From Candidatus Sulfomarinibacteraceae bacterium (GTDB lineage: Bacteria; Acidobacteriota; Thermoanaerobaculia; Thermoanaerobaculales; Sulfomarinibacteraceae): 64,000 nt of DNA. Below, piece by piece: positions 24,828-38,929 of this stretch. The notes beneath the pieces were generated by a model that was given only the letters and a program-made list of their open reading frames with translations, was not told the DNA's origin and searched no databases. Position numbers and translations under genes: made by a program. Positions within the stretch are counted from its first letter, which is position 1, and every line of letters begins with the position of its first letter. The stretch lies in contig CAVQQV010000038.1 in the NCBI GenBank assembly GCA_963714885.1, positions 65,086-129,085 on the forward strand, read 5' to 3'.

Positions 24828-24917
24828 GGGGCTCCTCCGAAGTGCTCTCCGGTGAGTATATCCCCACGCGGCGGTGGTCGATTGTTCGGTTCATCCGCAA
24901 TTGCATGAGATCGAGAA

Positions 24918-25289
24918 TTGTACGGAAGAGTTCGCAGAGTCTGCGACAGCGGCAGTTACCCGGGGCCGGAACAGGAACAGGTTTCAGCGGCAGCGGGTGA
25001 TGCCATTTCACTTGTCCTGCGGGTGCCGGCACCGCTCAAGTCGATTGCCGATCAGGTGATCCGTTCAGCGAGTTCCGTACCGGCCAACCTCGCCGAAGGC
25101 CACGGGCGGTCCGGACGCGACCGGTTGCACTTCTGGAGGATTGCTTACGCATCGGCCAAGGAGGTCGCTAGCCACCTACGGCTTCTGGAACGAGCCGGGG
25201 TCGTTAACACCTCCAAAACCATAAGGGTGCTCGAGACATTCGATCAGGTCCGCGCCATGACCTGGCGGCTCATTCACCCGAAGACGTGA
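24918..25289 (+). CDS. Four-helix-bundle protein (23S rRNA intervening-sequence protein family)
   Basis: IADQVIRSASSVPANLAEGHGRSGRDRLHFWRIAYASAKEVASHLRLL matches the family core (dQl.RAa.Si..NiAEG....s.k....f..iA.gS..E). The N-terminus and start codon are uncertain. Confidence 0.65.
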   Translation: MYGRVRRVCDSGSYPGPEQEQVSAAAGDAISLVLRVPAPLKSIADQVIRSASSVPANLAEGHGRSGRDRLHFWRIAYASAKEVASHLRLLERAGVVNTSKTIRVLETFDQVRAMTWRLIHPKT

Positions 25290-25422
25290 ATGGTCACGAT
25301 TACGCACCCGGTCCCGACCGGCGGCTGTCGCCGGAGACCGCCGCTGATCCTGCCCCTGTCACCAGTCGCTGCTCCGGTCGCGGGTTCTGGAAGGTGTTCG
25401 ATGAGGGAGGCGTCTTCGCCGG

Positions 25423-36138: not shown

Positions 36139-36221
36139 GATTGTCCTCCTAAGGGAACCATCGTTGTGGCGTCCTCGCCCGATGGTGAGCCGCCGGGTGA
36201 AGCTGAACCGGCAGCGGGGGG

Positions 36222-36230
36222 ATTCTATCA
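36222..36230 (-). promoter_or_regulatory. Extended -10 element candidate (TGATAGAAT) for the cDPG-synthetase-like/che operon
   Basis: The reverse complement of 36222-36230 is TGATAGAAT (TGnTAnAAT). It lies 84 nt upstream of ATG 36138 and 16 nt downstream of heptamer array A. Confidence 0.35.
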
Positions 36231-36246: not shown

Positions 36247-36281
36247 ATTTCGGATTTCGGATTTCGGATTTCGGATTTCAG
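36247..36281. repeat. Heptanucleotide tandem array A: (ATTTCGG)x4 + ATTTCAG
   Basis: The plus strand reads ATTTCGG ATTTCGG ATTTCGG ATTTCGG ATTTCAG followed by GCCC. It is intergenic. Confidence 0.95.
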
Positions 36282-36498
36282 GCCCGTCAACGGCCTGCCC
36301 AGGGGAGAGCGTCAGACGACTCCCCCACGGGCGGTCAGTCGCAGAAAGCGCTCCGCCGCACGCGGGCCGTTTCCGCGCGTCCTTCCCGAGAGGAGCCAGG
36401 CACGCGGCCCGTCGGACGGGCCGGATGCCAGGCACCTCCGCCGCACGCGGTCACACCAACGTGAGCACTCAGGTGTTTCCCGTCGGTGGGAGGCTGGT

Positions 36499-36535
36499 CC
36501 GAAAATTCCGAAATCCGAAATCCGAAATCCGAAAT
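36499..36535. repeat. Heptanucleotide tandem array B: CCGAAAATT + (CCGAAAT)x4, the inverted complement of array A
   Basis: 36508-36535 is the exact reverse complement of 36247-36274 (28 nt). The array ends 4 nt before the guaA stop codon (36540-36542). Confidence 0.95.
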
Positions 36536-36539
36536 CTGC

Positions 36540-38073
36540 CTACTCCCACTCAATCGTGCCCGGGGGCTTCGAGGTCACGTCGTAGACCACCCGGTTGATC
36601 CCGGCGACCTCGTTGACCACCCGGCGGGCGATGCGATCGAGGATCTCGGGGGGGAAACGATACCAGTCGGCGGTCATGAAATCGGTGGTGGTGACGGCTC
36701 TCACGGCCAGCACGTTCTCGTAGGTCCGCGAGTCGCCCATGACGCCGACGCTCTTCACCGGCAACAGCACGCACAGGGCTTGCGAGATCTCGTCGTACAG
36801 TCCGTTCGAGCGGATCTCCTCGATGACGATGGCGTCGGCCTCCTGGAGGGTGTGCACGCGTTCGCGGGTGACCTCGCCGAGGACCCTGACCGCCAGACCG
36901 GGCCCCGGGAAGGGGTGCCGCCAGACGAAGTCGTGGGGCAGACCGAGCTCCTCCCCCACCCTTCGTCACCTCGTCCTTGAAGAGGTCACGCAGCGGTTCG
37001 ACCAGCTCCAGACCGAGCCGGTCGGGCAGACCGCCGACGTTGTGGTGGGTCTTGATGACCGCCGCCGTGCCGCGCACTCCGGAGCATTCGATGACGTCCG
37101 GATAGAGGGTCCCCTGCGCCAGAAACCGGGCGTCGGGGAATCGTGCCGCCTCTGTCTCGAAGACCTCCACGAACTCGCGGCCGATGATCTTGCGTTTGGT
37201 TTCCGGGTCGTCCACGCCTTCGAGGGCTGAAAAGAACCGGTCGGCGGCGTCGACGCGGTCGAGCTTGAGCCCAAACTCCTCGAAGCTGCGCTCCACCGCG
37301 TCGCCCTCGTCCTGCCGCAGCAGCCCGGTATCGACAAAGATCGGGACCAGACGGTCGCCGACGGCCTCGCGCAAGAGCATCGCGGTCACCGACGAATCCA
37401 CCCCGCCTGAAACGCCGCAGATCACCCGGCCTTCCGTCAGACGGTCGGCGAGCTTCGCCACCAACTCGTGGCGGATCACCGACGGGCTCCAGTCGCGGCG
37501 CGCGCCGGCGAGGGCGATGAACTGCTCGAGCATCCGCGTCCCGTGGGGGGTGTGCCGGACCTCGGGGTGGAACTGCAGACCCACGAATCGCCTTTTCGGG
37601 TCGAAGATGGCCGCCACCTCGGTGGTGGGAGTACGGGCCAGGACCTCAAAACCATCGGGGACCCGTTCCACCAGATCGCCGTGGCTCATCCACACCGGCT
37701 GTTTCCGGGGCGTACCGATAAACACCGGCTCCTCGACGACGACCTCGAGCTCCGCGAAACCGTACTCGCGGTGCGACGAGGCCCGCACGTGCCCGCCGAG
37801 GTCGCGCGCCATGAGGTGGAGGCCGTAGCAGATACCCAGAACCGGAACACCAAGAGAGAAAACCGTCCCGTCGACCTGCGGCGCCCCGTCCTCGAAGACG
37901 CTGGCCGGCCCGCCCGAAAGCACAACCGCAATCGGCGCCAAAGCCTCGATCTCACGTGCCGGAAGGTCGCCGCGTTCGATGACCGTCTTGACCCCAAGCT
38001 CCCGCAAACGGCGCGTGATCAGCTGCGTGTACTGCGACCCGAAATCGAGGATGAGAATGACCTGGTGCTGCAT
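36540..38073 (-). CDS. guaA: GMP synthase (glutamine-hydrolysing), one frameshift near 36960
   Basis: [21 protein letters not shown] and GICYGLHLM form the GATase domain. [13 protein letters not shown] is the PP-loop. The C-terminal dimerisation domain ([12 protein letters not shown]...[10 protein letters not shown]) lies in ORF 36540..36959. The start ATG is at 38073. Confidence 0.93.
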
Positions 38074-38130
38074 GCAAGCTCCCCGGCGCGGTGACGCCAG
38101 CTTTTGTTGGGGCGGAGGATAACAGACACA

Positions 38131-38167
38131 GAATTCGGAATTAGGAATTAGGAATTCGGAATTTCGG
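38131..38167. repeat. Heptanucleotide tandem array C: GAATTCG GAATTAG GAATTAG GAATTCG GAATTTC GG
   Basis: Five 7-nt units lie 58-94 nt upstream of the guaA ATG. The terminal CGGAATTTCGGCCC resembles the ends of arrays A and B. Confidence 0.9.
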
Positions 38168-38425
38168 CCCAGCGTCCCACCGACAGTGAACGATCGAGTA
38201 CTCAGGCGCGTGCGGAAACGAGTCGCGTGCGGTGGAGGTGCCATTTGTCGCATTGTTTGAACTCGACACGTTCACTCGGCATCGAATCGCTTAGGGCAAA
38301 CAATGCGACGGGTGGCTCCTCTCGGGAAGTAAGTACGGAAAGTCGGCGAAGGGCGGAGATTGATCTCCCTCGTAAGAGCCATGAGATGATGGAATGCGGG
38401 CGGGGCGAAAAGGAAATAATCAAGA

Positions 38426-38929
38426 ATGATCAACTGGCTCCGCCGTGTCACTCCCGACCTCTTCCTCGCCGCCGTGGTGGCCCTCCTCATCACTCTTGCT
38501 CTCGACAAGCTCGACACGATCGAAAGCGACCGGATCGTCGGCGGCGTGCGGTGGGCGGCCCGAGACGGACTGACGATCGACGAACGGATCGGGGTCTTCG
38601 AGCAGTTCATCCGGCGTTCGATCTTCGTTCATCAACGGGCGGCGATCGGGGTCCTCGAGCAGTCCATCCGGCGTTCCATCTTCTTTCATCAACCGGTTCT
38701 GGTGGCCGGCGCGGCGATCATTGTCGGATTCATCTGCCGCAATCGACGCTGGGCGTGGCTGACCGCCATCATGGCGATCGTGCCTGCGTTGCTCATGGGC
38801 GCAGGGTTCCTGGTCGACTGCCCCCCTCCCCGGTTCGGTCGTGATGGCGTCCTATGTGACATTGGCGGTCTTCCTCGCCTCCCTCAGCGTTGTCGTCCGA
38901 AACCGATTGGTCCCCGCAGTTGCGCGTGA
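38426..38929 (+). CDS. Hypothetical membrane protein containing an in-frame 57-nt tandem duplication
   Basis: A 167-aa ORF with TM-like segments (LFLAAVVALLITLAL, VLVAGAAIIVGFI, LTAIMAIVPALLMGAGFLV). The C-terminus is uncertain. After the C-run at 38821-38830 another frame encodes a further TM-like segment (SYVTLAVFLASLSVVV). Confidence 0.45.
   Translation: MINWLRRVTPDLFLAAVVALLITLALDKLDTIESDRIVGGVRWAARDGLTIDERIGVFEQFIRRSIFVHQRAAIGVLEQSIRRSIFFHQPVLVAGAAIIVGFICRNRRWAWLTAIMAIVPALLMGAGFLVDCPPPRFGRDGVLCDIGGLPRLPQRCRPKPIGPRSCA

Follow-up and report, generated by a model that had tools for sequence, protein, structure and literature searches.

Heptamer arrays around guaA as probable terminal modules of a mosaic intergenic repeat in Candidatus Sulfomarinibacteraceae

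Background

Repetitive extragenic palindromic sequences and bacterial interspersed mosaic elements (REP/BIME), and likewise the enterobacterial repetitive intergenic consensus (ERIC), are intergenic repeats of enterobacteria which are transcribed, form hairpins, are mosaic in build, lie in either orientation and often just past stop codons, and vary between strains. Here we describe an intergenic element that carries arrays of tandem heptamers and is present in two copies beside guaA, the gene for GMP synthase, in a stretch of 64,000 nucleotides (the window) from a Candidatus Sulfomarinibacteraceae bacterium (assembly GCA_963714885.1, contig CAVQQV010000038.1, positions 65,086 to 129,085). We propose, at a probability of roughly 0.6, that the arrays are the terminal heptamer modules of a mosaic intergenic repeat which is present here in two copies and resembles REP/BIME or miniature transposable elements with inverted repeats (MITEs), and that pairing of its arms is the property under selection.

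Tandem heptamers dispersed in intergenic DNA, with several unit families per genome, were described in cyanobacteria as short tandemly repeated repetitive (STRR) sequences (Mazel 1990, as cited in PMC4692102 and PMC4679880), and heptamers have been summarised as the commonest long simple sequence repeats (SSRs) in prokaryotes (Mrazek 2007, as summarised in PMC4679880). The GGGAATC repeats of Xanthomonas and the GGGGAYT repeats of Nostoc are intergenic, have a period of seven and mostly four units, and form 70-75 convergent pairs per genome (Rehm et al. 2015, PMC4692102). They lie in sense within 50 bp of a stop codon or antisense upstream of open reading frames (ORFs), are transcribed, and vary between close relatives (PMC4692102). 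The TAACTGA repeats of Beggiatoaceae, Cyanobacteria and Bacteroidetes occur in 2-6 copies, are also intergenic and are suspected of a role at the RNA level (MacGregor 2015, PMC4679880); their arrays stand just upstream of start codons, with one indirect set among 170 (PMC4679880).

Results

The arrays belong to two copies of one element

Tandem Repeats Finder (TRF) returned exactly three high-scoring period-7 arrays in the window, here called A, B and C. A two-unit 14-mer probe allowing up to 3 mismatches matched at these three sites and elsewhere in the window only in the form of scattered 3-mismatch matches, and none of 100 dinucleotide shuffles reached the observed 14-mer count. The original prediction for this stretch, which had been made from its letters and had placed three arrays around guaA, is confirmed in this point by all three approaches. 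With 4.3-4.7 units per array at 92-100% identity, each is a heptameric array of about four units. The arrays, and the elements to which they belong, are as follows.

36247-36279, (-) strand: array A, ATTTCGG x4.7 at 100% (TRF), CGAAATC repeats in guaA sense; 3' arm of element 1
36504-36536, (-) strand: array B, in guaA sense GATTTCG x4.6 and then GGAATTTTCGG; 5' arm of element 1
38131-38167, (+) strand: array C, GAATTCG GAATTAG GAATTAG GAATTCG GAATTTCGG; head array of element 2
36247-36536, (-) strand: element 1 (copy 1), about 290 nt, filling the spacer between guaA and a downstream cDPG-synthase-like gene, from alignment with copy 2 and from inverted repeats; in order array B, head box CCAGCCTCCCACCGAC, GAGTGCTCA, a short-hairpin core unit (GCGGCGGAGGTGCC..CTCCTCTCGGGAAG), more hairpins, array A
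36385-36444: copy of the core pattern in element 1
36390-36438, (-) strand: central hairpin of the element 1 core, with its base GGAGGTGCC/GGCTCCTC common with copy 2 and a different distal stem
38131-38420, (+) strand: element 2 (copy 2), headed by array C, in opposite orientation to copy 1 and upstream of guaA; in order array C, head box CCCAGCGTCCCACCGAC (38168-38184), GAGTACTCA, GCGGAAACGAGTCGCGT, a long-hairpin core unit, tail
38207-38334, (+) strand: core repeat unit of the family in copy 2, GCGGTGGAGGTGCC, hairpin 38235-38321, GGCTCCTCTCGGGAAG

By TRF alone, array B spans 36507-36536 (TCCGAAA x4.3, 100%) and array C 38131-38163 (GAATTAG/GAATTCG x4.7, 92%). Array B starts 3-4 nt past the guaA stop codon (36540-36542); array C ends 57 nt from the guaA ATG (38073) and 6 nt from a box of the form TGnTAnnnT, TGTTATCCT (38116-38124), and 16 nt separate array A from a second such box, TGATAGAAT (36222-36230). 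The distances of the arrays to the stop, the ATG and both boxes, as first reported, hold in the sequence. With regard to strand, B reads GATTTCG after guaA, and A and C read CGAAATC and CCGAATT in the sense of the gene that each precedes.

The earlier description of guaA as flanked by inverted copies B and C stands in that the two are inverted, with an identity of 83% over 36 nt only. What it overlooked is that A and B are by far the better inverted pair, 97% complementary over 32 nt with 225 nt between them, and that the B side and the C side resemble one another for about 200 nt past the arrays. The reverse complement of 36247-36536 aligns to 38131-38420 through ordered blocks, namely the array, CCAGCsTCCCACCGAC, GAGTrCTCA, CGCGTGCGGyGGAGGTGCC, a hairpin whose base is kept and whose distal stem differs, and TGGCTCCTCTCGGGAAG. 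Since the blocks common to both sides extend beyond the arrays, the two sides are oppositely oriented copies of a single element about 290 nt long. Copy 1 has A and B as its two ends, and the inverted copy 2 is headed by C, with no clear partner array found at its far end. The terminal unit said to be common to all arrays is indeed shared, but it is in fact the junction to the conserved head box CCAGCsTCCCACCGAC. A nhmmer profile of 133 family members matches the window at 38209-38332 (E = 6e-29), and the only copies of the core family within the window are the two that adjoin guaA. Rfam 15 gave no match in the window at gathering thresholds and chance-level matches only at E up to 5.

Orthologous loci retain matched arms with different units

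The comparison took in eight species-level orthologs of the guaA-to-cDPG arrangement. Inverted tandem arrays bracket the spacer between the two genes in five of the eight, with one arm just past the guaA stop and the other, in five species, 11-21 nt before the TGnTAnnnT box of the cDPG-synthase-like gene; such a layout is frequent at this spacer without being obligatory. The bracketing units are unrelated, being GATTTCG in the window, GAATTAG/GAATGAG in locus L243, AGTCGAC in L245, GAATGAT in L286 and the hexamer GCGTCC in L244. When four of the spacers were folded as RNA in guaA sense, each was closed by an array stem of 29-33 bp (z-scores of -7.2 for the window, -5.8 for L243, -3.9 for L245 and -2.8 for L244), and in the window the predicted A:B stem of about 29 bp closes the whole spacer. 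Arms that match one another while their units differ between species indicate that arm complementarity is maintained as the sequence turns over.

Arrays upstream of guaA, by comparison, occur only in the clade of the window, that is in the window, L001, L199 and L209 with the units GAATTAG, AATTCGG, GAATGAG and AATTTTG. None stands upstream of guaA in L243, L244 and L245, so that the comparison of related genomes once suggested as a check finds array C missing in three related species. Relative to the downstream gene, guaA has one constant orientation in each of the nine related loci in which both genes are covered, and no recombinase gene is found among the neighbours of the locus.

Why then is guaA bracketed by B and C at all? 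It is bracketed because the gene sits between two neighbouring elements, and a microcompartment shell gene in L094 is likewise bracketed between two elements. This, together with the constant orientation of guaA in nine loci, the lack of a recombinase nearby and the modest similarity of B and C, speaks against an invertible segment and hence against the recombinational role once proposed for the arrays.

Within the array-bracketed spacer of L286 lies an IS200-type Y1 transposase gene (1463-1906) of an insertion sequence (IS) with CCGGCTTTAGCCGG end hairpins, whose right end (GGTTGAC) directly abuts the array. Close homologs of this gene are found almost only on contigs of 0.6-1 kb, which points to a multicopy IS.

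The core is a dispersed repeat in the lineage

A core pattern built from two conserved blocks matched at least 120 metagenome contigs. Over all loci compared, the related genome loci and the window included, the core is present at least 144 times; a contig often carries several copies, and some copies are arranged as tandem units with a period of 121 nt. Related copies are present in metagenome-assembled genomes (MAGs) of Ca. Sulfomarinibacteraceae, and homologs of the cDPG-synthase-like neighbour are labelled Thermoanaerobaculales or Holophagae by their sources. The elements are put together as mosaics. Their modules comprise a heptamer array, whose unit is one of several related ones, the head hairpin CCCACC..GGGTGGG with GAGTGCTCA, a box GCGGAAACGnnnCGCGT, a single core unit or more than one, and further modules. 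A core unit is composed of GCGGCGGAGGTGCC, a covarying hairpin of about 70 nt, GGCTCCTCTCGGGAAG and then GCGGAWACGnnnCGCGT (window 38207-38334, loci L123-L242). An alignment of 114 core copies (RNAalifold) contains compensatory changes in seven pairs of the long hairpin and several G.U positions conserved on one strand, which together argue for a strand-specific structure.

Among the 144 listed copies, 137 are intergenic, and their orientation with respect to flanking genes is random (52 co-directional and 51 opposed upstream, 57 and 58 downstream). Both the placement and the orientation point to a dispersed repeat rather than to a leader or riboswitch. A cis-regulatory leader of the downstream gene had been considered, as both copies in the window point at a gene, and was rejected on account of this random orientation. 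A CRISPR-like reading of the tandem 121-nt units fails as well, since the 'spacers' are themselves conserved covarying hairpins. Taken together, the element is probably a mosaic intergenic repeat that is abundant in Acidobacteriota/Thermoanaerobaculia, and there probably in Ca. Sulfomarinibacteraceae.

Heptamer arrays form a class with fixed length and polarity

A scan of species-representative genomes for three AWTTCGG units gave at least 118 loci (L005-L122) in many phyla, which speaks against the locus specificity that the original prediction had suggested. All 118 listed loci are MAGs, of Acidobacteriota, Verrucomicrobiota, Planctomycetota, Chloroflexota, Bacteroidota, Clostridia, Candidate Phyla Radiation bacteria and others; the lack of isolates among them may reflect scan order or uncultured phyla. 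The length of perfect arrays peaks at 32-33 nt (53 of the 118) regardless of G+C content or phylum. Viral contigs yielded 36 matches among 2.9 million, several of which look like coding repeats; these matches are few and lack the mode of 32-33 nt, so that a phage origin of the arrays finds no support.

A census by TRF of 661 kb of metagenome loci, picked by the core pattern and not by arrays, counted 227 arrays with a period of 7, whereas periods 6 and 8 gave 44 and 76. The same mode of 32-34 nt recurs in 85 of the 227, their units form one family, G(G/A)AWTTN, and the association of the array with the head box CCCACC.. is constant in this lineage. Neighbouring arrays with related units are mostly inverted rather than direct (47:6 and 21:3, and 5:0 at the guaA loci). 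With polarity defined by the G-rich strand, pairs up to 700 nt apart face inward (G..C) in 62 cases and outward in 8; at 700-5000 nt the outward-facing C..G arrangement is commonest (20 cases). Arrays within 45 nt past the stop of a confident ORF carry GGAWTTC in the sense strand in 64 cases against 10, and in 48 of these 64 the array start falls between -2 and +5 nt of the stop codon.

These regularities bear on the notion that the arrays are functionless SSRs made by slippage and unlinked to the repeat modules beside them. In many prokaryotes no class of long SSR is more abundant than heptamers, and slippage of the polymerase has been put forward for them (Mrazek 2007, as summarised in PMC4679880); the units are indeed homogenised inside arrays and different between orthologs. 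A neutral process, however, would be expected to produce a monotonic decay of lengths instead of a sharp mode at 32-34 nt, and it sits badly with the 62:8 polarity of pairs, the 64:10 strand bias with starts within 5 nt of stop codons, the joint change of matched arms across species and the constant link to the head box. We therefore hold a neutral by-product to be very improbable.

Could the heptads instead be tandem protein sites, either as operators in DNA for an omega-type ribbon-helix-helix repressor or as a sponge in RNA for CsrA (GGA), RNase E (RN|WUU), S1 or a cold-shock protein? The units of the lineage are dominated by G(G/A)AWTTN, every one of which we take to carry both a GGA and an RNase E-like motif, and next to the copy-2 head in L001 lies a weak CopG-like ORF (E = 0.005, below the Pfam cut-off). 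S1, Csp or CsrA have moreover been proposed for the TAACTGA repeats (MacGregor 2015, PMC4679880). Yet the orthologous AGTCGAC and GCGTCC arrays lack such motifs, the CopG-like ORF is missing from the window, and paired arms would be double-stranded and closed to single-strand binders, all of which makes protein sites of this kind scarcely credible.

Further heptamer arrays with the unrelated units CGGATGG, GAGTGGA, AGTGACG, TAGTGGT and ATTGGTC were observed in L014, L043, L064, L098, L118, L120 and others, often as inverted pairs of about 33 nt. The ATTGGTC unit of L120 is presumably the cyanobacterial STRR2 unit TTGGTCA. A Planctomycetota MAG (L016, 7228-7283) has an AATTCGG array 4 nt past a stop codon that is preceded by ...TIEWE, a guaA C-terminus; the same gene end with the same repeat in two phyla may be coincidence or a hint of transfer. 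A literature search on the exact heptamer strings returned human primer sequences only and none in a bacterial context.

Arrays are hotspots of difference between strains

A protein identical to the cDPG-synthase-like one is encoded on four other assemblies (L001-L004), whose coding DNA is 98-99.7% identical to that of the window. L001 (98% identical) contains a 5-kb island exactly at array C (L001 2907-7975, opposite window 38149-38156), flanked by direct array/head copies GGTGTGGG..GTCGAAATTCCGAATTCC, and its array next to guaA consists of 25 nt of AATTCGG as compared to 37 nt in the window. The island encodes a reprolysin-like metallopeptidase, an M14-like peptidase remnant, a secreted protein and the weak CopG-like ORF. 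A mobile origin of the island was set aside, as no integrase or recombinase is among its genes and recombination (deletion or insertion) between two direct array copies explains it. L003 keeps both arms around an unrelated interior of 160 nt. L002 (98.6% identical) is without array A, its sequence changing directly upstream of GTGATAGAAT with the -10 box intact, and L004 breaks off 15 nt before reaching array A. Contigs from short reads terminate at arrays. The arrays are thus hotspots of structural difference between strains.

Other observations on these strains concern sequences next to or apart from the arrays. The L001 assembly has many frameshifts. A 53-nt direct repeat in the window (38587-38696, ORF 38426-38929; spacing 57 nt, 91% identical) doubles 19 codons of a small membrane-protein ORF, whose counterpart in L001 has a single copy and another C-terminus. 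A segment of about 520 nt (24870-25416), missing in L001, is another small strain-specific insert and has no heptamer arrays; judged by eye alone, its ORF looks like a member of the 23S rRNA intervening-sequence family of four-helix-bundle proteins.

Is the element then a true MITE, that is, a non-autonomous transposon with the heptamer arrays and head box as its terminal inverted repeats, which some transposase moves and each of whose loci is an independent insertion? Element 1 certainly has the looks of one, with terminal inverted repeats (A/B) of 97% over 32 nt, a total length of 290 nt, no coding capacity and relatives in at least 144 core copies. The inverted arms with their fixed polarity, the random orientation to genes and the different content of one site in different strains would all follow from transposition. 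So would two identical arm-plus-interior copies at separate sites of one contig (L079) and an inverted head at the far end of a composite element (L140). The Y1 gene abutting an array in L286 even offers a candidate enzyme: enzymes of the Y1 type produce no target duplications, and their substrates are strand-specific hairpins, a property that would suit the conserved G.T/G.U pairs of the core. On the other hand, no target-site duplication was seen at any junction inspected (element 1, its orthologs, and the L079, L043 and L094 copies). Other copies of the L286 IS have ends of their own (CCGGCTTTAGCCGG hairpins and the GGTTGAC end). In the IS copies inspected no array stands at the GGTTGAC end, although in L290 a short array with a head-like box lies upstream of the opposite end, and 2 Mb of array-rich loci contain no second Y1 gene. 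Finally, most arrays are solo, and AGTCGAC, GCGTCC and GATTTCG at the same orthologous position, each with matched arms, would be hard to reconcile with one sequence-specific transposase. Given this balance, we regard a true MITE as unlikely, albeit the main rival explanation.

Promoter boxes and neighbouring genes

The neighbouring genes and promoter boxes are the following.

38073-36540, (-) strand: guaA (GMP synthase), from its translation, Pfam domains of orthologs and alignment to four relatives
36138-34816, (-) strand: cDPG-synthase-like gene (predicted GTPase), from its translation and the names of homologs; downstream of element 1
38116-38124, (-) strand: TGTTATCCT, probable extended -10 of guaA, 42 nt upstream of the ATG
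36222-36230, (-) strand: TGATAGAAT, probable extended -10 of the cDPG-synthase-like gene

The TGnTAnnnT patterns beside arrays A and C, originally read as extended -10 elements, are conserved in orthologous loci. The guaA box, read in four of the species-level orthologs, varies across species as TGTTATCCT, TGCTATCCT, TGGTATTCT and TGCTATGCT, and the form TGnTATnCT is kept in L001, L199, L209, L243, L244 and L245. That of the cDPG-synthase-like gene varies as TGATAGAAT, TGGTAGAAT, TGCTATGAT and TGCTAGGAT and is kept in seven of the eight species-level orthologs; it is present in L001-L003, L243-L247, L284, L286 and L287, including L002 with all upstream sequence replaced, and is imperfect only in L285 (TGTATCAT). 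Conservation of both boxes at the same place suggests that they are probably real extended -10 promoters. A scan for consensus promoters found no -35/-10 pair, as is expected for this type; a terminator scan found none, and as no U-tract follows the A:B stem it is not a canonical intrinsic terminator.

Does it follow that the arrays are promoter modules, acting as substitutes for a -35 or UP element or as tuners of variable copy number specific to guaA and the cDPG-synthase-like gene? That they occupy the -35/UP position of two transcription units is borne out by the sequence: they end 6 and 16 nt from conserved boxes, and in five species the promoter-proximal arm keeps its place before the -10 box. 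An outward TGnTAnnnT within 45 nt of the outer array end accompanies 15 of 255 arrays as against 2, 1 and 0 in three controls (about seven independent loci, some of the cases leaderless and several with an ATG 6-8 nt past the box), and array C differs in length between strains. But arrays that are missing upstream of guaA in L243-L245 and before an intact box in L002, and that in L244 are G+C-rich (GGACGC), do not behave as UP elements or phase-variable repeats of these promoters. In addition, only 6% of arrays abut a box and far more abut a stop codon, and a 7-bp period is out of helical phase. The regulatory role specific to this locus is thus not borne out, and we judge promoter modules to be improbable.

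Three side observations concern the two genes themselves. Window guaA has a 1-nt insertion near 36965 (36955-36970, (-) strand; GAGGTGACGAAGGGTG versus GAGGTG-CGACGGGTG in relatives), which shifts the frame after ...RDLFKDEV where the four relatives compared are all in frame; it is an assembly error or marks a recent pseudogene. In L001, guaA has a different break and is called as two ORFs. The 5' untranslated region (UTR) of the cDPG-synthase-like gene contains, a few bases past the extended -10 box, an 8-bp hairpin with an invariant loop, GCCGG-TTCAGCyTyACC-CCGGC (36189-36215, (-) strand), which recurs in at least nine orthologs with compensatory changes in two pairs (five aligned). The hairpin matches no Rfam family and may serve this gene family as a leader or regulatory motif.

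Discussion

The anatomy of the element, its family membership and copy number, the polarity and length mode of its arrays, its variability between strains and the maintained complementarity of its arms are established here. Its most likely role is that of a stem-forming repeat in RNA or single-stranded DNA (ssDNA) and of a hotspot for indels. On this account A and B would pair on the guaA transcript or in ssDNA into a stem of about 30 bp that closes the whole guaA-cDPG spacer. The element would fill all dispensable spacer from the stop codon to the -10 box; the arrays would abut both because extended -10 promoters need no -35, which makes the spacer upstream of the box replaceable. Selection may act on arm pairing as such, by way of a stem-loop in the 3' UTR or between cistrons that would be protective, act as a terminator or undergo processing, for instance by RNase III. 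REP/BIME elements and phage RNase III sites are parallels for stem-loops in such positions. The arrays may grow by slippage in steps of 7 nt, with complementarity kept by template switching or by selection, and may act as patches of homology that give rise to indels and to the exchange of interiors between copies.

Several points weigh against this account. Pairing of the arms at the RNA level is something that we infer from predicted folds; extrusion of a DNA cruciform is unlikely given an interior of 225 nt, but this is no proof of a role as RNA. Three of the eight orthologous spacers have ordinary hairpins or a single array in place of the bracket, which is therefore not essential, and about 70% of arrays, C included, are solo, so that pairing cannot be the whole story. 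Arrays are no scarcer in divergent intergenic regions (23 of 136) than in the background (106 of 783), which is a better fit to a generic filler or mobile element than to a dedicated 3'-UTR device and, together with the many solo arrays, makes a purely 3'-UTR function incomplete. We saw no target-site duplications at the junctions inspected and found no autonomous partner element in the loci compared. Lastly, neither stem stability nor slippage explains why the G-rich arm is 5' by 8:1 or why lengths peak so sharply at 32-34 nt. Transposition leaves the same two regularities unexplained.

It is tempting to see behind these regularities a class of structured elements common to many phyla, in which heptamer arms of about 33 nt, G-rich arm 5', stand at stop codons and are read by one conserved machine. 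We offer this as a tentative idea, possible but on the doubtful side. The factor that recognises or generates the arms could then be a strand-specific transposase or nickase of ssDNA, or alternatively one for RNA processing or termination; the units would evolve in concert in both arms, and the 121-nt covarying core would be a new structured RNA or ssDNA module.

For the locus itself, the outcome is that the tempting story of a special guaA repeat switch is removed and the three arrays are assigned to real units. For any mechanism, the 32-34-nt mode, the 62:8 inward polarity, the start near stop codons and arms that stay complementary through unit replacement are constraints, and they point to stem-dependent 3'-end formation, RNase III processing and strand-specific ssDNA transposition as candidates. 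In practice, arrays mark strain insertions and breaks in short-read assemblies, which matters for binning and strain comparison of this sediment lineage.

How does the element compare with known systems? Mosaic combination of modules and hairpin formation are traits that it shares with REP/BIME, as are intergenic placement in either orientation and variability between strains. REP stems, however, are unique imperfect palindromes of 20-40 nt rather than tandem repeats and are linked to REP-associated tyrosine transposases (RAYTs), and no RAYT gene flanked by family repeats was found in the loci compared here. With MITEs such as Correia/NEMIS and Nezha it has in common that it is small and non-coding, ends in inverted repeats, exists in many copies and is polymorphic between strains. 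It departs from them in its lack of target-site duplications, in inverted ends that are internally repetitive and differ in sequence between orthologous sites, and in that a matching autonomous element was not found. The TAACTGA repeats are likewise intergenic and represent one heptamer common to distant phyla, but the arrays described here follow stop codons and are commonly paired in inverted orientation.

The closest likeness in the arrays themselves is to heptamer repeats. Like STRR they are intergenic tandem heptamers with several unit families, although STRR arrays are often much longer, and neither a fixed 32-34-nt mode nor an inward polarity is reported for STRR in the accessible literature. 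Like the Xanthomonas and Nostoc repeats they have a period of seven, about four units, inverted pairs, a preference for the sense strand past stop codons and strain variability, and even the Xanthomonas unit GGGAATC resembles the CGGAATT/CGGATTT found here. Unlike those repeats, they have only GG per unit and so lack the four or more tracts of at least three G behind the G-quadruplex potential claimed for the Xanthomonas and Nostoc members, continue into a head box and a structured core, and reside in different host phyla. Since orthologous arms such as AGTCGAC and GAATGAT have no G-tracts, a G-quadruplex cannot be the common property. The arrays thus belong to the known and unexplained class of the cyanobacterial STRR and the Xanthomonas GGGAATC repeats, and if one conserved machine should indeed read them, it would provide a mechanism for the 35-year-old puzzle of STRR and heptamer repeats.

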